In this document: in pieces, positions 1 to 5,356 of the stretch
Layout: each line of letters begins with the position of its first letter
Position numbering within the stretch: the stretch's first letter is position 1
Notes under the pieces: model-generated
The model's input: the letters and a program-made list of their open reading frames with translations, nothing else
Told to the model about the DNA's origin: nothing
Databases searched by the model: none
Position numbers and translations under genes: made by a program
Assembly: GCA_934281515.1 (NCBI GenBank)
Contig: CAKQXG010000001.1
Location: 1-61,900 of the forward strand
Direction of reading: 5' to 3'
From: an uncultured Clostridia bacterium
GTDB taxonomy: Bacteria; Bacillota; Clostridia; Christensenellales; CAG-314
Length of the DNA stretch: 61,900 nt

Positions 1-890
1 AGCAAAATGTGTCCCGTATCCTCACCATAAGAGTCCATGCCCTGCATTTGGCGAAGTAGCTCCGAGCGCACCTGCCTTGCATATTGCGAGTGCGTCGTTG
101 CAGGGCAGATAGAATCAAACTCGTCGAAGTAAATTACACTGCACGGAAAACTGCGCGCTTCCTTAAACAATGTTGCAATCAGCTTTTCGGAGTTGCCGAA
201 TCCCTGTGTAAGCAGGTCTGACGGTCCCACCGCGCAAAACTTCGCACCGATTTCTCTGGCAGTCGCCGCGGCAATCATCGTTTTGCCCGTGCCCGGAGGA
301 CCGTACATCAATATGCCGCCGCCGCCCTTTTTCACATAACCTTTGTACAAATCGGGGTTAGTAAGCGGTAACAGCACTTTGTTTTTGACGGTAGTTTTAA
401 CATCGGCAAGTCCCGCCACGTCGTCAAAGGATATTGTAGGCAATTCGTCCCACTTAAACACGAAACTGTTAGGCGTTTTCGGTCCTGCCGCAGTTCCATC
501 CGTTCCGTCGGGTGCAGAGCGCCCCGCCTTTTCCTTGCTGATACCCTTGCCCGCTTTTGTACCGCTTTGTGCCGTCGAAGGTTTGTTAGCGGCACCTGTT
601 GTCGGCTTTTGTGGTACACTCGGCATCGGTAACGCGTTACCGGTCAGCATACGGTACACGGCAGGAAAGTCTGCCGCAGACGTCAACTGGCGCGTAGCTT
701 CCAACACCAGACGAGCCTTTTCGCCGCTGCGTATGCGGTCGGGCACAGACAACTTGCCGATGTCGACAAGTTGTTGCGCCACGTCCAACAACAGACTGCG
801 CACTTGTTTGAAGTCGCCGCCGTTTTCAATCAGGGTCATTGCTCTGTCGAAATCGGCATTGCACTTGTTTTTAAGGTCGATTACGTTCAT
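1..890 (-). CDS. AAA+ ATPase of the classical clade (Vps4/spastin/katanin-like) with an N-terminal helical MIT-like domain; C-terminus cut by the window edge
   Basis: Own minus-strand translation from the ATG at 888-890 gives MNVIDLKNKCNADFDRAMTLIENGGDFKQVRSLLLDVAQQLVDIGK... This is followed by a P/T/A/G-rich linker of about 55 aa (PSVPQKPTTGAANKPSTAQSGTKAGKG...). The AAA module then shows ISFDDVAGLADVK, Walker A ILMYGPPGTGKT, Walker B SVIYFDEFD and QYARQVRSELLRQMQG. It is absent from the ORF track because it runs off the window. The ATG lies 1 nt after the stop of the upstream gene. Confidence 0.85.
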   Translation of the reverse strand, partial: MNVIDLKNKCNADFDRAMTLIENGGDFKQVRSLLLDVAQQLVDIGKLSVPDRIRSGEKARLVLEATRQLTSAADFPAVYRMLTGNALPMPSVPQKPTTGAANKPSTAQSGTKAGKGISKEKAGRSAPDGTDGTAAGPKTPNSFVFKWDELPTISFDDVAGLADVKTTVKNKVLLPLTNPDLYKGYVKKGGGGILMYGPPGTGKTMIAAATAREIGAKFCAVGPSDLLTQGFGNSEKLIATLFKEARSFPCSVIYFDEFDSICPATTHSQYARQVRSELLRQMQGMDSYGEDTGHIL

Positions 891-891
891 T

Positions 892-1476
892 TTATATTAT
901 CCTGTTACGTTCAGCTTTAATCTCCGCCGAAATATCGATGTCGCTTGCAGAGGGCAGCGATACGCCTGTAATTCTTGCGCGAGCGGCGTCCACCATCGGG
1001 CGAACGGCGTCGATTTCCGCCTGACTTCTTGCACGATTGGCAGGGTTGGACGTACGCAACGTATTGGACATTGCCTTTTGCGAGATTTGCAAACCACGCA
1101 TATATTTGGCAATTTTGACGTTGGCGCGTTGAATCTTGCGGATGTCGGGCATCTGGCTTTTCCCGTCAGCCATGCGGTCAAGCGCGTTGACTGCGGTAGC
1201 AAGGTTGATAGCAATTGCGTTAGACACGTTGATAATGTCAAAGTTCGCCTTGGCTTGCATAAGTCCGCTGATTACGTCGTTAAGTTGGATAAGCGCGCTG
1301 ATTGCCACATCGTATGTAGCGGTGTCGCCGTTATCCTCTGCCTCGGCGGCAATGGTAGCGTACTCTTCGCGCTTCTTTTTAAGTTCGTTTATCTGGTCGG
1401 CAAAAACCTGCATTTGTTCGTCGCGCTCCATTTGCGCCTGTATTTCCCTTTCTGCCTTGGACTTGAAGAATCCCAT
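892..1476 (-). CDS. 194-aa all-helical coiled-coil protein, ESCRT-III/Snf7/PspA-like (tentative)
   Basis: ORF track. N-terminus MGFFKSKAEREIQ resembles the MxxFGK-type ESCRT-III/PspA N-termini. It has long heptad-like helices (YDVAISALIQLNDVISGLMQAKANFDIINVSNAI; MPDIRKIQRANVKIAKYMRGLQISQKAMSNTL). Its length is about 200 aa. It is translationally coupled to the AAA ATPase. Confidence 0.5.
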   Translation of the reverse strand: MGFFKSKAEREIQAQMERDEQMQVFADQINELKKKREEYATIAAEAEDNGDTATYDVAISALIQLNDVISGLMQAKANFDIINVSNAIAINLATAVNALDRMADGKSQMPDIRKIQRANVKIAKYMRGLQISQKAMSNTLRTSNPANRARSQAEIDAVRPMVDAARARITGVSLPSASDIDISAEIKAERNRII

Positions 1477-1501
1477 TGTTTATTCCTCCGATATCTGGTT
1501 G

Positions 1502-2566
1502 TTATTTTTTATTGTTGGTTTTGGTTGCGGCAGGGTCTGCAACGTCGTCGGGAGTGTCAAGCGTGCGCTTGGTCGGCGGCGTAAGCGAAGCAATGTCGGC
1601 ATTGGTCTGGTTGCGTTCGCGTATTTTACGCATAAGCTCTTCCTTGTAAGCAAGCGCGTCTTGCGACACGGTTGTGCTTGTTCCCTGTTGCCCGAACACC
1701 TTCTGATCCATTGCGCCAACGCCCAATGCAATTTTTTCGATGTCTTTTTGCATCACTTTCAATATTGCAATTGCCTTGTCGGGTTCGGTTACGACGTTTT
1801 TAAGTTTGTCGATGTTAAGCAATGCTTTTGCCTTGCCGATCTCCGCAGGCGAGAAGAATGAGCTTTGCAATATCTCCGCAGCGTTGGCGTAAATCATATC
1901 CAACACGTTGAAGCAAGCCGAGTAGTTTTCGCGGCGCACGTTGAGATTGCCGATGATACTCTTTGCGGCGGATATTTTGCGGTACAACTCGTTGATCTGG
2001 CGTTCGTTGTCCTCTTTTACCATCATGTTTTCCAACTCGGCAAGATCGCGTTCCTTGGATTGAATATCCCTTTCAAGGCGGTTGTTTTGCCCTTCGAGAG
2101 CCGTTTTTATCGTATCAAGCTCGGCAAGGCGGTCAAACAAACGCTTTTGCGCGGCAGTTTTGCGTGCGGCTTGCTCGTTTTCTTCAAAACTGTCAAGCAA
2201 AGCCGTCGCGTCGGGATCGTTGCAGATTTCCGACAGCGTGTCGATGCAAAATTGCAAAGTGTCGGCGTTTTCTTCCAGACGACCCGAGTAAATTTGTCCG
2301 AGCGACTTTTTAAGCGCAACAACCGCTTCTGACGTACTTGCGCCGATTTTGCGCAAATCTTCGTCGCCCGTAAACAACAAACCTTCAACATCGCTGTAAG
2401 ACTTTTTGAGCATTTCCAACACCTTGTCGACGGTTTCCTTGTCGAGTTGCTTGTTATACTTGCCCTTTTCTATAAAAAACACAAGGGCATTAAGTTGTTT
2501 TTTCAGTTCTTCGCACTTTGCGTTGTTAGCCGTTGCGGACGGCACATATTTTTTTGCAAAACACAT
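1502..2566 (-). CDS. 354-aa coiled-coil protein of unknown function; its C-terminal half is possibly a second ESCRT-III/PspA-like helical hairpin
   Basis: ORF track. SD AAAGGAGAG sits 8 nt before the ATG at 2566. It has an extended heptad region (QNNRLERDIQSKERDLAELENMMVKEDNERQINELYRKISAAKSIIGNLNVRRENY...). The tail is T/P/D-rich (TPPTKRTLDTPDDVADPAATKTNNKK). Confidence 0.6.
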   Translation of the reverse strand: MCFAKKYVPSATANNAKCEELKKQLNALVFFIEKGKYNKQLDKETVDKVLEMLKKSYSDVEGLLFTGDEDLRKIGASTSEAVVALKKSLGQIYSGRLEENADTLQFCIDTLSEICNDPDATALLDSFEENEQAARKTAAQKRLFDRLAELDTIKTALEGQNNRLERDIQSKERDLAELENMMVKEDNERQINELYRKISAAKSIIGNLNVRRENYSACFNVLDMIYANAAEILQSSFFSPAEIGKAKALLNIDKLKNVVTEPDKAIAILKVMQKDIEKIALGVGAMDQKVFGQQGTSTTVSQDALAYKEELMRKIRERNQTNADIASLTPPTKRTLDTPDDVADPAATKTNNKK

Positions 2567-2605
2567 AGTTTTTACTCTCCTTTGTCGGCGTAATGGCGTT
2601 GTAAT

Positions 2606-4051
2606 TTACATCGTGTACAAACCGCGTTGTTTGAAAAACTCCAACGCGCTTGTCAGGTAGTCTTTGCGAGAGATGTTGTCGCGTTCGAATTGTTGTTCCA
2701 ACAGTTTGTTGTTTTCGTCGGATTTGTGACGAATACGATTGAGCGTTGTCCATATGTCGGAGGCGTGCTTGGCATCTTCCACCGACAAACCTGCCTTGAC
2801 AAAGCGCACAACGGGGAACATCTCCACCAGGCAAGGTTTGCCGTCGGCAGTCGTGCTGTACACGCGCGGTTGCAATACGCTTATCGAACCGTCCTTGTTG
2901 CGACGTTTAAGCAAGTTTCTGCCTTCGAACATTGTCGTTTCGGCGATGGCAAGATACTCGTCGTAATCGATAAGAAACTTTTGATCCTTGTGTTGCAAGC
3001 CAAACTTGTGTATAAGGTTGTCCTCGACATTGCTGTACAGCATTGCCGCAGGCGGAATAAGGTCGTCGTCGGTTTTGGCGTGAGCAATCAAAAACTCCGC
3101 CGTAACGTCAAGTGTGCGCAAGTGATCGGCTTTTGCCGCGTCTTGCAGGGGCAACGTTTCCTGTATGCGCTCGTCGATTTCCGACACGATGTTGCGACCG
3201 AACTCTTGCAATTGCGCCGTGAGTTGCGCTATCACCGCCGCAACGAGGTCGTTTTTAAGATTGCCGTTTTCCTCGGCAAAGCGACGATACATTTCTTCGC
3301 TGAAACGGATAATTTTACTACTGCCGTCGTTACCGCCGCCACTGTTGCCGTCATCGTCCTTGCGACCGGGGATTACGCCGCCGTTGTTGATGCGGTCACG
3401 TATGCGCTCAAGGTCCTCCTGATTGATGTGCATGCCGGCAACCACCACATTGTCAAGGCGTATGCCCATAGACGACAACGCCGAGTCCAACTTGAGTTGC
3501 GACTGGATTTCGGCACGGATTTCCGCCATGCGAGCAACCATTTCAAACACAGATACGTTGCTGTCGGCAAACTGTTTGGCAATGACAGGTGCGGCGTCAC
3601 CCTGAATGACGGACAATACGCGTTCATGCACGTCATCAAGCGTAACGTCCTCTCCGTATGGGAAGGCGTTGACCAACTTGACGTAGTCGCAAACAGTCGG
3701 CGTGTAGGTGCCGTTTGCGCCCACGCGGTAAGCTTCGTTAAGACGAGCGTTGTTTACATTGATGTTGCCTACGCCCCACTTGTCGGGAGCCAATGCCTTG
3801 GTGCGCACATATGCAACCTGCACAGTTTGTCCCGCGGCTTGTTTACCGACAAGAGCTAACAACTCCTGCCCGAGACCGCTTTCGCGACGCAACAGCGGCT
3901 TGCCGTTGATAAACACCACCGCCGTATACTGCGGCGGAACCTCCAACGTGGTACCGCGGTCGAGCACAAATTTGCCCGAGTAGGTAATGAGATTTCTCTC
4001 CGACGGATTATCCAGACGGATAAACGTCTTTTTGGGTCCAAACAAACTCAT
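2606..4051 (-). CDS. SPFH/band-7 family protein of the YdjI (COG4260) type with an extra C-terminal domain of about 235 aa of unknown function
   Basis: ORF track. N-terminal aa 1-220 follow the YdjI-like pattern: MSLFG..., LEVPPQYTAVVFINGK, KWGVGNINV, RVGANGTYTPTVCDYVKL, SMGIRLDNVVVAGMHINQEDLERI. A G/D/N/S linker covers aa 222-246. A separate domain runs to aa 481. Confidence 0.7.
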   Translation of the reverse strand: MSLFGPKKTFIRLDNPSERNLITYSGKFVLDRGTTLEVPPQYTAVVFINGKPLLRRESGLGQELLALVGKQAAGQTVQVAYVRTKALAPDKWGVGNINVNNARLNEAYRVGANGTYTPTVCDYVKLVNAFPYGEDVTLDDVHERVLSVIQGDAAPVIAKQFADSNVSVFEMVARMAEIRAEIQSQLKLDSALSSMGIRLDNVVVAGMHINQEDLERIRDRINNGGVIPGRKDDDGNSGGGNDGSSKIIRFSEEMYRRFAEENGNLKNDLVAAVIAQLTAQLQEFGRNIVSEIDERIQETLPLQDAAKADHLRTLDVTAEFLIAHAKTDDDLIPPAAMLYSNVEDNLIHKFGLQHKDQKFLIDYDEYLAIAETTMFEGRNLLKRRNKDGSISVLQPRVYSTTADGKPCLVEMFPVVRFVKAGLSVEDAKHASDIWTTLNRIRHKSDENNKLLEQQFERDNISRKDYLTSALEFFKQRGLYTM

Positions 4052-4413
4052 TTCAAGTCCTCCTCCGAACTACCGTCAATTATTTGACACAGGCGCGTAA
4101 GAGTGGCGTCGTCTATGTCTTCTTTAGCCAGTGTGCGGATAAGCTTCTTGCGCTTGTCCGCCATTTCCGTCAGGTCAATCTTGACGGTGGAAGCCGAAGC
4201 TTCGATTGCGGTATGCAATTCCTTTTGCTCCTCCGCAGAGAGACCGTACTGCCTGACGATCTCCGATTCCAACGTGGAAGGAATGTTGCGTTTGCCGTTT
4301 TCCATTGCAGACAGATACGCCGCACTAAGGGACAATTTCTCCGCCATTGCGCGCAAACTGTCACCGCTGTTTATTCTCATAATTCTCATCACTTTACCGA
4401 ATTCGGTCAGCAT
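4048..4413 (-). CDS. XRE-family helix-turn-helix transcriptional regulator
   Basis: ORF track. The HTH is MRIMRINSGDSLRAMAEKLSLSAAYLSAMENGKRNIP. SD GGAGG precedes the ATG. The stop overlaps the SPFH start (ATGA at 4048-4051). Confidence 0.8.
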   Translation of the reverse strand: MLTEFGKVMRIMRINSGDSLRAMAEKLSLSAAYLSAMENGKRNIPSTLESEIVRQYGLSAEEQKELHTAIEASASTVKIDLTEMADKRKKLIRTLAKEDIDDATLTRLCQIIDGSSEEDLK

Positions 4414-4444
4414 GACAAATAACCTCCGTATTTGTTATGGTTAT

Positions 4445-4472
4445 ATTTTATCACATTACAGGAAAATGTCAA
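4445..4472 (-). promoter_or_regulatory. sigma-70-type promoter for the XRE-SPFH-...-AAA operon
   Basis: On the minus strand: TTGACA (4467-4472), a 16-nt spacer, then TAAAAT (4445-4450). It lies about 30 nt upstream of the XRE ATG. Confidence 0.55.
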
Positions 4473-4810
4473 CACGATTTGTGAACATTTTTTAAATTTT
4501 TTTAAAATTTTTTACAAATTTTGCCGGACAAACAGTTAAATGTGCGTTTTGAGAGAAAAACTAACATAATTATCCGATGCGACGAGTCGACCGCGAATAC
4601 CGAGCAACCCGACAGTCAATTGAAGTATCGATAATTTTATTGAATTGAGTGAAAAATGCCCGACTACGGCAACTTCGTCAGATAACATATTTGCGCGATA
4701 CAAAAATGCGGTTGCGAACGCCGTGATTAAACGTCGAGTTTCTGCTTGAAAATTCGATCAACTTGTGTTACAATATAGTCAAGAAAAGCAATCCGATATT
4801 GAGGTGTGCC

Positions 4811-5356
4811 ATGCGTATATTCATTGCATTGAAACTACCCGACAAAACCGTCGAAAATCTTGCCCGTTCTGCCACCGACCTGAAACACTTTGACTGTGGC
4901 GGTAGTTTTGTGCCGTCGACCAATTACCACGTGACGTTGCACTTTTTGGGCGAGGTTGCCCCGAGCGACCTTATTTACGTACAAAAAGCGATGGACGAAG
5001 TTGCCAAATTACCTGCACCGACATTGGCAGTACATCAGATATGTACCCTGCGCGCGAGCGACATTGTTTGCGCCAAATTTCGCCCATGCAAGGAGTTGAC
5101 AACTCTGCATGAAACGTTGGGTGCCAAACTCGAAGAACAGCGCTTTACCGTGGAGCACCGCGCTTACCGTCCGCATGTGACAATGGTACGCAAATACAAG
5201 TTTACGTTGCCGTTCAGCGAAGTGAACAAGAGCGTAAAAGTGTACAATATGCCTTTTGTTGCCGACCAACTTGTACTGTACGCCAGCGATTTGCGCCGCG
5301 AAGGTGCCGTCTACACACCGCTGTACACGGTACAATTGCAAACAAACAACGATTAA
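4811..5356 (+). CDS. thpR: RNA 2',3'-cyclic phosphodiesterase (2H phosphoesterase, LigT/ThpR)
   Basis: Two HxT motifs are present (HVTLHFLGE and HVTMVRK). SD GAGGTG precedes the ATG at 4811. The ORF-track start at 4763 is judged too far upstream. Confidence 0.8.
   Translation: MRIFIALKLPDKTVENLARSATDLKHFDCGGSFVPSTNYHVTLHFLGEVAPSDLIYVQKAMDEVAKLPAPTLAVHQICTLRASDIVCAKFRPCKELTTLHETLGAKLEEQRFTVEHRAYRPHVTMVRKYKFTLPFSEVNKSVKVYNMPFVADQLVLYASDLRREGAVYTPLYTVQLQTNND

Follow-up and report, generated by a model that had tools for sequence, protein, structure and literature searches.

The locus described here can be set beside several known systems: the archaeal Cdv/ESCRT-III–Vps4 systems (CdvA-CdvB-CdvC, Asgard, and others), the pspA-ydjGHI operon of Bacillus subtilis, the Vps4-like ATPases reported from bacteria, the defense system IetAS, and the immune systems that employ TIR domains. 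An SPFH protein is encoded in certain archaeal ESCRT loci (PMC10936438), the role of the SPFH protein YdjI in PspA localization has been summarized (PMC10936438), and there are published accounts of SPFH proteins linked to PspA in B. subtilis and to ESCRT in archaea (PMC10936438, PMC7619361). Bacteria, which possess PspA/Vipp1, are said to lack a Vps4-like disassemblase (PMC10936438, PMC7619361), a Vps4-like ATPase being described as apparently absent from them (PMC7619361), and in the bacterial cases that have been reported either snf7 is displaced by a TPR plus six-transmembrane (6TM) protein or PspA is paired with a two-AAA-domain protein (PMC11237479). Here, we analyze a stretch of 61,900 nucleotides from an uncultured Clostridia bacterium (GenBank assembly GCA_934281515.1, contig CAKQXG010000001.1, positions 1 to 61,900 of the forward strand), referred to as the window, which begins with a five-gene operon for an XRE regulator, an SPFH protein, a coiled-coil protein of 354 amino acids (aa) that we call CC354, a 194-aa helical protein that we call E3, and a AAA ATPase.

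Our conclusion, which we hold with modest confidence, is that this operon is a membrane-proximal conflict system of the anti-phage or abortive-infection type built on an ESCRT-III/Vps4-like pair. It is probably an immune module rather than a plain stress operon because genes for TIR proteins or trypsin-like proteases nearly always follow the core genes. The five genes and their promoter are located as follows.

4048-4413, minus strand: XRE gene, operon gene 1, encoding a helix-turn-helix (HTH) regulator of 121 aa
2606-4051, minus strand: SPFH/Band_7_1 gene, 481 aa, its start overlapping the XRE stop (ATGA)
1502-2566, minus strand: CC354 gene, 354 aa, helical/coiled-coil product
892-1476, minus strand: E3 gene, 194 aa, product beginning MGFFKSK
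ATG at 890, running off the window start, minus strand: AAA ATPase gene, 296 aa within the window
4445..4472 (the site reads 4472-4445), minus strand: sigma-70-type promoter TTGACA-16-TAAAAT at the operon head, with a TG extension

Open reading frame (ORF) calling returned five co-oriented, tightly packed minus-strand genes with a single promoter ahead of them, and the layout described in an earlier, sequence-only reading of this DNA (the initial annotation) was confirmed throughout: the genes stand behind TTGACA-16-TAAAAT, and the junctions, read directly from the sequence, are the ATGA overlap at 4048-4051 followed by gaps of 39, 25, and 1 nt. The promoter agrees with the consensus at 11 of 12 positions and scores best among the 10 promoter-like sites detected within the first 6 kb, where shuffled sequences give 5.3; terminator-like matches within the operon are no more frequent than in shuffles. 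The ATPase is cut by the window edge, and we recovered its missing C-terminus from L001, one of the metagenomic contigs that encode an identical 194-aa protein. The full-length L001 copy has 426 aa, and 292 of the 296 residues it shares with the window ATPase are identical (99%). Most likely, these five genes are the beginning of a conserved operon that continues past the window edge.

To define the gene set, we scanned 185,579 species genomes with an E3 alignment of moderate diversity, which yielded 33 loci. Their hosts are gut and rumen Clostridia (Christensenellales, Oscillospiraceae, Ca. Borkfalkia) and metagenome-assembled genomes (MAGs) of Bacilli, along with a few MAGs titled Elusimicrobiaceae, Bacteroidaceae, or simply "bacterium." The gene-neighborhood conservation that the initial annotation had proposed as a check was indeed found: the same order is shared by the 33 genomes at 30-76% protein identity, and it extends to metagenomic relatives down to 21%. 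Mapping with profile hidden Markov models (HMMs) placed the genes as follows.

XRE: at the head, before SPFH, in most loci
SPFH: upstream of CC354 in 30/33 loci, the remaining three being truncated
CC354: directly upstream of E3 in 32/33 loci
AAA: downstream of E3, next to it or near it, in 24/33 loci
TIR: downstream of E3 in 29/33 loci

Six of the nine loci without a mapped AAA gene are cut by a contig or locus end, in or before the giant downstream gene. The pairing of E3 with a AAA gene persists in E3 relatives of only 21-38% identity. Thus, L045 reads XRE – SPFH-like – CC-like – E3 – AAA – two Trypsin_2 genes, L044 reads XRE – three genes – E3 – type 2 AAA (the two ATPase types are defined below), and both L042 and L048 read Zn-ribbon/Sel1–trypsin – 270 aa – 400 aa – E3 – AAA. 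In the last two loci the AAA protein is a CbbX/SpoVK-type module (AAA_lid_6), of which the L042 copy keeps a similar N-domain, and L048 additionally encodes a RuvB-like ATPase and a TIR protein. Because distant relatives keep the cassette, we regard (SPFH-like)–(coiled coil)–E3–(N-domain–AAA) as the constant core and the effector as the variable part. RuvB-like ATPases with N- and C-terminal extensions stand beside the E3-associated AAA gene in three loci (L039:8633-10252, L040:6158-7789, and L048:10729-13089), and the L039 protein scores 324 bits against the RuvB model.

The E3 family itself is small. Clustering at 90% identity gives 615 clusters. At 50% identity, 1.84 billion proteins yield only 45 representatives with E <= 0.001; about a dozen are full-length, and one of the 45, P0164, was set aside as a repeat-protein false positive. 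No E3 relatives were found in phage, plasmid, or IMG/VR viral collections, and no source gave names for the proteins of the locus.

E3 matched nothing in Pfam or NCBIfam and nothing meaningful in PADLOC. A single-sequence phmmer search of the Protein Data Bank (PDB) gave four hits, three of which were CHMP3 (residues 16-163, E 0.13-0.56). With a diverse 16-sequence E3 profile, the top PDB hit was Sulfolobus islandicus CdvB at E 5.8e-4, the runner-up being 24-fold weaker. This alignment spans the α1-α2 hairpin and sets the E3 hairpin tip AEAE.NGD on RAQVEGDD of CdvB. A diverse rather than a narrow profile was required for the match: when the E3 profile was restricted to 26 sequences of >=69% identity, the CHMP3 signal was gone and only noise was returned from the PDB.

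We then aligned the E3 family by hhalign to a Snf7 reference consisting of six eukaryotic ESCRT-III sequences, each confirmed as Snf7 by Pfam (60-198 bits). This comparison gave P 0.0016 over 96 columns and placed E3 residues 21-117 on CHMP3 26-128, such that the family-invariant Pro110 of E3 (MPDIRKI) faces KIPEIQ of CHMP3. Against an enlarged reference the value was P 5.9e-4 (probability 29%) with the register unchanged; the search by which the reference was enlarged added only vertebrate CHMP3 and CHMP4B, and the Snf7 profile stayed shallow. A 75-aa CdvB fragment retrieved only two proteins from the protein database. The E3–Snf7 value is better than that of every control, including reversed sequences (0.049-0.073), 40 block shuffles (minimum 0.0021, median 0.18), and other helical families (0.33-0.43). 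No similarity was seen between the E3 family and Escherichia coli PspA (P 0.2). We consider E3 ESCRT-III-like because different methods rank ESCRT-III best and two sequence-profile methods do so with the same hairpin register. It is therefore likely that E3 belongs, truly but remotely, to the ESCRT-III superfamily, and from its sequence it looks nearer to the Snf7/CdvB side of that superfamily than to PspA.

Structure prediction agrees with this assignment in outline. AlphaFold2 modeled E3 with a mean pLDDT of 51 from a shallow alignment and of 72 from a diverse one, with 80-90 on the hairpin. The predicted helices cover residues 7-49, 52-102, 112-142 (kinked, 112-128/131-142), 152-170, and 182-193. 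As far as the order of secondary structure goes, the model fits the ESCRT-III plan of a long hairpin, α4, α5, and a flexible tail, with a terminal helix added. When two E3 models were compared with the PDB by Foldseek, the top ranks were taken by CHMP2A/3, CdvB, CHMP1B, and CdvB2 for one and by CdvB for the other. Two further elements lie at the ends of the protein.

1456..1476, minus strand: E3 N-terminal motif MGFFKSK, resembling the N-termini of ESCRT-III and PspA proteins (MGLFGK, MSVFGK, MGIFSRF)
895..942, minus strand: E3 C-terminal amphipathic helix DIDISAEIKAERNRII, following a variable Pro/Ser/Gly linker (predicted helix 182-193)

The N-terminal motif, M[AG]F[FY]K[ST]K in the family, is conserved in close E3 relatives and missing from the most distant ones. 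The terminal helix has the consensus D[IL][DS][IL]SAEI.AEK[NK][RK]I[IL] and is kept across loci irrespective of AAA type; no covariation with AAA type was seen, the motif being the same for both. By our reading, it does not match the consensus of the MIT-interacting motif (MIM) of type 1. We infer from its location, which is that of the MIM in ESCRT-III proteins, that the ATPase N-domain may dock on this helix. Between α4 and α5, nearly all members of the E3 family also keep an NPA motif (SNPANK).

The second half of the proposed pair is the ATPase, which divides into three parts.

636..890, minus strand: all-helical N-domain, residues ~1-85
456..635, minus strand: low-complexity Pro/Ser/Thr/Gly/Lys linker, residues ~86-145, varying in length and sequence among orthologues
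1..455, minus strand: AAA domain, truncated at the window start after residue 296 of 426

The helical N-domain, low-complexity linker, and classical AAA domain with GPPGTGKT and IYFDEFD are thus all present as first described. The window fragment matches PF00004 with 82 bits; its Walker motifs are GPPGTGKT (A) and IYFDEFD (B), and its pore loop 1 reads TQGFGNSEK. In the full-length L001 orthologue we find a single AAA domain (107.7 bits) with sensor-1 and arginine fingers, followed by AAA_lid_3, and both ATNKPW and RPGRLG are present. The terminal helix represented by Vps4_C is a hallmark of the Vps4/katanin/spastin group. Vps4_C (PF09336) matches residues 393-426 of the L001 orthologue, outside the window, at 21.9 bits against a cut-off of 21.3, and it is matched by 18 of 23 members of the ATPase family, the best at E 9.1e-6. 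The best PDB hit with a single AAA domain is katanin p60, in an alignment that reaches the extreme C-terminus.

Two types of this ATPase can be told apart. Type 1, to which the window protein belongs, has 406-483 aa, an N-domain of ~85 helical residues, and a long, variable, low-complexity linker. The paralogous type 2 has 365-389 aa, a shorter N-domain, and the canonical pore loop S-K-Y-M-G-[ED]-S-S-K. Both types contain ATN.PW..D and a terminal helix DL.K...[WYF]R..NG, their N-domains are alike (hhalign E 2.5e-4), and one locus, L026, encodes both. Of the NCBIfam models, CdvC scores highest for type 1 at 158.5 bits (cut-off 650), ahead of PAN at 148.9 and CDC48 at 147.7, and for type 2 the order is CDC48 (222), PAN (218), and CdvC (184); for both types, all values are far below the equivalog cut-offs. 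The IetA models of PADLOC give 47 bits for the window fragment and 151 bits for type 2, below the CdvC, CDC48, and PAN scores. Judged from sequence, our conclusion is that the ATPase is a classical-clade AAA protein with a Vps4/katanin-type architecture and C-terminal helix, and that it is probably no orthologue of CdvC or Vps4. PDB entry 2jpu, a weak match of the type 2 N-domain, had been suspected to be an archaeal MIT domain but was absent from the matches of the validated MIT profile and was dropped.

Downstream of the core lie genes that would connect it to conflict systems. A TIR gene abuts or overlaps the AAA gene in several loci (e.g., L017, L027, and L033) and elsewhere lies between E3 and AAA; TIR is lacking in L018, L039, and L040. 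The TIR proteins begin with a Zn ribbon and TPRs followed by a TIR_2 domain with the motifs D.F..K, GY.VF.S, and W..NEW and a conserved catalytic-type Glu. Many of them continue with further TPRs, a single transmembrane (TM) helix at about residue 780-930, and then 700-1300 residues of LRR_5/Flg_new/GLUG repeats, and others end in a multi-TM anchor or are soluble. Giant TIR proteins of 1600-2100 aa, all outside the window, are encoded at L001:10255-15063, L017:9868-16266, and L024:2744-8068. The topology predicted from these sequences, with a cytoplasmic TIR domain, one TM helix, and extracellular LRRs, would be receptor-like, resembling a Toll-like receptor with the domain order reversed.

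In distant E3 loci, trypsin-like proteases replace or join the TIR proteins (L042:623-1999, L045:4245-5934, and L048:5800-6957). The L042 and L048 trypsins carry Sel1 repeats, and the L042 protein starts with a Zn-ribbon-like CxxC pair. This Zn-ribbon/Sel1–trypsin design parallels the Zn-ribbon–TPR–TIR design. A swappable effector beside a constant core is a pattern characteristic of conflict systems. Accordingly, the initial annotation's side remark that the operon might be an anti-phage module is strengthened by these conserved TIR and trypsin genes, which lie downstream and outside the window. In the L001 contig, a 265-aa FtsK/SpoIIIE-type P-loop protein is encoded just past the point that corresponds to the window start (L001:6898-7695), with the ATPase gene on one side and the first TIR gene on the other. 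Its PADLOC matches are mads_8 and, at 157 bits, the C-terminal portion of SspH, and among the compared loci its BLAST matches are confined to the lineage of the window.

The three proteins encoded ahead of E3 are a predicted regulator and two candidate scaffold components. As first assigned, the 121-aa protein is an XRE-type HTH regulator; it matches Pfam HTH_31 (32.3 bits) and HTH_3 (27 bits) as well as the HTH and "control protein" models of PADLOC. The 481-aa protein matches PF13421 Band_7_1 at 29.0 bits (cut-off 24) over residues 78-212, and no hydrophobic segment or TM anchor was found in it. Its description as a TM-less SPFH protein therefore stands; the further label "YdjI-type" depends on the membership of YdjI in PF13421. 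The SPFH family of these loci has a short form (~217 aa), consisting of the SPFH domain alone, and a long form (~450-530 aa), which adds an acidic or coiled linker and a conserved C-terminal domain of ~200 aa. In the window protein this domain is located as follows.

2609..3184, minus strand: conserved C-terminal domain of the long-form SPFH protein, about residues 290-481

Its conserved blocks are AAMIYSNVEENLI, VEM.P.VRF.KAGL, and LN[KR]IRH[KR]S.EN, and the domain has no match among PDB structures or in Pfam.

CC354 has the conserved motifs KKY.PS.KNNN, GTGEEN, NYSAC, EPDKAI.ILK, and YKEELMRK. We find no relative of it in the PDB, no similarity to the E3 family (P 0.19) or, at the family level, to the Snf7 reference (P 0.15-0.41), and, for 22 family members searched against Pfam, only generic coiled-coil noise and no PspA (PF04012). 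These comparisons thus give no sign that it is a second ESCRT-III/PspA-like subunit. The initial annotation had allowed for one or two ESCRT-III-like subunits; sequence comparison supports E3, where the signals are weak and consistent, but not CC354. The C-terminus of CC354 reads ...NKNG[IVL][LI] or ...DGIL in six loci (L010, L019, L023, L032, L035, and L041), similar to the E3 end ...EKN[RK]I[IL], and these sequence similarities may reflect a shared peptide that a TPR or MIT-like domain, for instance, would recognize. The window CC354 ends otherwise, in …TNNKK.

With these features in hand, the locus can be compared with the systems named at the outset. It resembles the archaeal Cdv systems in that E3 is a protein of ~190 aa with five to six helices, a long hairpin, a hydrophobic/basic N-terminal motif, and a flexible linker that leads to a conserved terminal helix, and in that its gene adjoins that of an ATPase whose small helical N-domain and disordered linker precede one AAA domain and a C-terminal helix of Vps4_C type. 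Moreover, CdvB is the best E3 profile hit and CdvC the best NCBIfam model for the window ATPase, and the non-ESCRT coiled-coil partner CC354 precedes E3 as cdvA accompanies cdvB (PMC11237479). Unlike the Cdv systems, however, it is found in bacteria (gut Clostridia and Bacilli), its E3 protein is unseen by Pfam Snf7 and inverted in charge, and its ATPase reaches 158 bits against the CdvC cut-off of 650, has no pore-loop aromatic residue in the window copy, and has an N-domain without detectable MIT similarity. ESCRT-I and ESCRT-II components and wHTH partners are not present here. Instead, the locus is wired to an XRE regulator and to TIR/trypsin effectors, an arrangement suggestive of conflict and not of division or sorting.

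The pspA-ydjGHI operon of B. subtilis, also a Firmicute, likewise combines genes for an SPFH protein of Band_7_1 type, without TM segment, and for a protein of the ESCRT-III superfamily. The analogy that had been drawn with it holds for the SPFH partner only, since a PspA_IM30 protein is absent from the locus. Neither YdjG nor YdjH has an equivalent here (window and L001), and a PspC or LiaI-type partner is not present either. Conversely, the dedicated AAA ATPase and TIR effectors found here are absent from the Psp operon, and the long SPFH protein has an extra conserved C-terminal domain. The bacterial Vps4-like ATPases of Ravi et al. (2024, PMC11237479) are also classical-clade AAA proteins with Vps4-like features, but here the ATPase gene directly follows an ESCRT-III-like gene and has SPFH and TIR partners. 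In IetAS, as in our locus, the gene for a classical-type AAA ATPase accompanies that for a protease or another effector; the ATPases here are matched by IetA models, and some variants of the locus bear trypsins. The differences are that SPFH, CC354, and E3 match no PADLOC IetAS model and that a Vps4_C helix is present. Finally, TIR_2 with a catalytic-type Glu is shared with TIR immunity (Thoeris-type NADases and, as an architectural analogy, Toll-like receptors), as is, in many of the proteins, a cytoplasmic TIR domain joined by one TM helix to extracellular LRRs. Here, however, TIR is N-terminal and cytoplasmic with the LRR/Flg_new repeats C-terminal and outside, Zn-ribbon and TPR parts are added, and there is no ThsA-like partner and no PADLOC match. 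The statement that this combination is not a characterized bacterial system thus holds for PADLOC and the searched literature, in which no description of the locus was found; two conflict-system papers from the Aravind laboratory (PMC7159879 and PMC8195603) contained nothing relevant to it.

A number of observations weigh against a conflict system built on an ESCRT-III/Vps4-like pair. The ESCRT-III signals of E3 are each weak: Pfam Snf7 and PspA_IM30 match none of 16 family members, the hhalign probability for E3–Snf7 is only 16-29%, and the Foldseek matches are not significant (E 0.19-0.3, all >0.1; TM-scores 0.3-0.45, about 0.35). The AlphaFold and Foldseek check therefore gave the ESCRT-III helix order and ESCRT-III proteins at the top ranks but no E-value below 0.1, although low scores would be expected of a conformationally plastic fold. 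The charge of E3 is also distributed in the wrong sense. Across the family, residues 1-105 have a net charge of -3 to -9 and residues 106-170 one of +4 to +13, whereas the six reference ESCRT-III proteins have +7 to +16 in the hairpin half and -11 to -15 in the C-terminal half. An acidic hairpin with basic α4-5 is thus the opposite of the canonical polarity.

On the side of the ATPase, pore loop 1 of type 1 has the form x-G-[FIVL]-G-N-S-E-K (T-Q-G-F-G-N-S-E-K in the window), so that the aromatic residue is lost and the window protein departs from the Vps4 pattern K-W/Y-Φ-G. The lack of the aromatic residue argues against processive threading. Given this degenerate loop, the type 1 ATPase may be a regulator or a weak remodeler, and type 2 looks, from its sequence, like a threading enzyme. 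The distances of the AAA core to CdvC, PAN, and CDC48 are about the same. Compared with a Vps4 MIT profile validated against the PDB, the type 1 N-domain shows no detectable similarity (P 0.28), and the type 2 N-domain shows a marginal one (P 0.0044) that mostly covers a single TPR-like hairpin. This negative is weak evidence because even the genuine MIT domain of archaeal CdvC scores no better than E 0.03 with the same profile. Support for describing the ATPase as Vps4-like comes from its layout and Vps4_C helix. At the level of the locus, no AAA gene is seen within 8 kb in L015, L018, and L024, and in the lineage of the window the FtsK/SspH-like gene separates the ATPase from the first TIR gene. 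In PADLOC-DB v2 the SPFH and tested TIR proteins have no match, CC354 and E3 have only weak matches to unrelated models (E 0.007-0.17), and the ATPase and XRE proteins match generic AAA (IetA, TRIP13) and HTH models.

Some of these points would fit an operon of a different kind, in which the SPFH protein recruits an ESCRT-III-like polymer during envelope stress or membrane repair, as in Psp systems, the AAA protein recycles the polymer, and the TIR and trypsin genes are simply neighbors in a variable region. We think this unlikely. The absence of TIR from L018, L039, and L040 and the extra gene between ATPase and TIR genes in the window lineage speak for it, but TIR genes occur in 29 of 33 loci and in several of them abut or overlap the AAA gene or lie between E3 and AAA. 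The distant trypsins, with a Zn-ribbon and TPR/Sel1 N-terminus of the same kind, likewise speak for effector swapping and not for chance neighbors. An XRE regulator with a single promoter would suit an inducible stress operon, yet the family is narrow and patchy (45 representatives), unlike housekeeping stress systems. Lastly, the documented SPFH–PspA and SPFH–ESCRT links (PMC10936438, PMC7619361) and the MGFFKSK start of E3, which resembles both ESCRT-III and PspA, agree with a Psp-like function, but PspA_IM30, PspC, and a LiaI-type partner are not present.

It is similarly improbable, in our estimation, that the resemblance to ESCRT is spurious, with E3 and CC354 being lineage-specific coiled-coil adaptors and the ATPase a generic classical-clade AAA protein, as in defense systems like IetAS; the locus would then be a new AAA-driven TIR/protease defense system that performs no ESCRT-type membrane remodeling. 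All ESCRT-III signals are sub-threshold in standard libraries, and the polarity of charge is inverted; against this, independent methods converge on ESCRT-III, and the match beats reversed, shuffled, and decoy controls. The MIT domain is undetected in the window-type ATPase, and some loci have a CbbX/SpoVK-type module in place of this AAA module, but the ATPases end in the Vps4_C helix. IetA models do match them (47 bits for the window fragment and 151 bits for type 2), and the trypsin-bearing variants echo the AAA-plus-protease logic of IetAS, but the CdvC, CDC48, and PAN models give the ATPases higher scores than IetA does. CC354 matches generic coiled-coil families only, as this account would have it, whereas the SPFH protein is a recurrent companion of ESCRT-III-superfamily proteins (PMC10936438). 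Hardly any credence can be given to the idea that these genes came together by chance or reflect faulty annotation: ORFs and promoter consensus matches are no proof of expression, but the order recurs in 33 genomes from several lineages of Clostridia and Bacilli and in relatives down to 21% identity with gene boundaries that overlap or nearly abut, and this conserved order effectively refutes it.

If the operon is a membrane-proximal conflict system, its parts might act together as follows. The XRE protein would control the single promoter, and the TM-less SPFH protein and CC354 would form a scaffold beneath the membrane. E3, as a remote, charge-inverted relative of ESCRT-III, would be expected from its fold class to polymerize on or with this scaffold. 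The ATPase N-domain would dock on the C-terminal helix of E3, and the ATPase would remodel or disassemble the assembly as Vps4 does with ESCRT-III, a contact that we propose because of the architecture of the ATPase and the strict adjacency of the two genes. Output would come from the genes after the ATPase, which encode Zn-ribbon–TPR–TIR proteins and, elsewhere, Zn-ribbon/Sel1–trypsin proteases. The assembly state of the scaffold could gate these effectors, or the scaffold could shield the membrane while they act; it may control the TIR and trypsin proteins or be controlled by them, and what happens at the cell surface could be sensed by the extracellular repeats. The infected cell would then be halted by the NADase activity of TIR or by the protease. 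In this scheme polymerization, the contact of ATPase and E3, the association with the membrane, and a role in immunity are what we infer from the sequences and their arrangement.

Regulation by the XRE protein has a possible site in the promoter region, where one inverted repeat overlaps the -35 box.

4463..4491, no strand: imperfect palindrome AAAATGTCAACA / TGTGAACATTTT, overlapping the -35 box, with 12-nt arms that are 83% complementary and lie 5 nt apart

From this location, the palindrome may be the operator to which the XRE protein binds. Another inverted repeat lies at 4411-4439 (CATGACAAATA / TATTTGTTATG); it is 91% complementary and covers the region of the XRE ribosome-binding site and the start codon. 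Just upstream of the promoter, a divergent gene at 4763-5356 on the plus strand encodes a LigT/2',5'-RNA-ligase-family phosphoesterase, as annotated by Pfam for the identical L001 gene. Beyond it, the region from 5.5 to 9 kb, the putative toxin island of the initial annotation, is AT-rich, with a GC content of 0.30-0.37 as compared with 0.45-0.55 in the operon, and between 5500 and 9000 the GC skew is strongly negative and there are several small minus-strand ORFs.

We also offer, more tentatively, a stronger form of our conclusion, namely that this is a genuine bacterial ESCRT-III plus Vps4-type machine in which a polymer-forming, charge-inverted E3, a dedicated meiotic-clade AAA ATPase that turns E3 over, and an SPFH/coiled-coil platform serve as the arm for membrane remodeling or assembly gating in an immune system with TLR-like transmembrane TIR–LRR proteins as its sensors and effectors. 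If true, it would be the first bacterial ESCRT-III/Vps4 pair reported and the first prokaryotic link of ESCRT-type machinery with TIR immunity. A bacterial operon for ESCRT-III-like, Vps4/katanin-like, and SPFH proteins would revise the accepted distribution of ESCRT-III and Vps4, and a compact system of four proteins would allow the ATP-driven turnover of ESCRT-III-type polymers to be studied. Even without ESCRT homology, the locus would be an uncatalogued, widely conserved candidate defense system with swappable effectors. Its near-obligatory link to TIR or trypsin genes suggests that abundant gut Firmicutes have an immune strategy not yet described, in which membrane-remodeling machinery and TIR signaling are unexpectedly tied.

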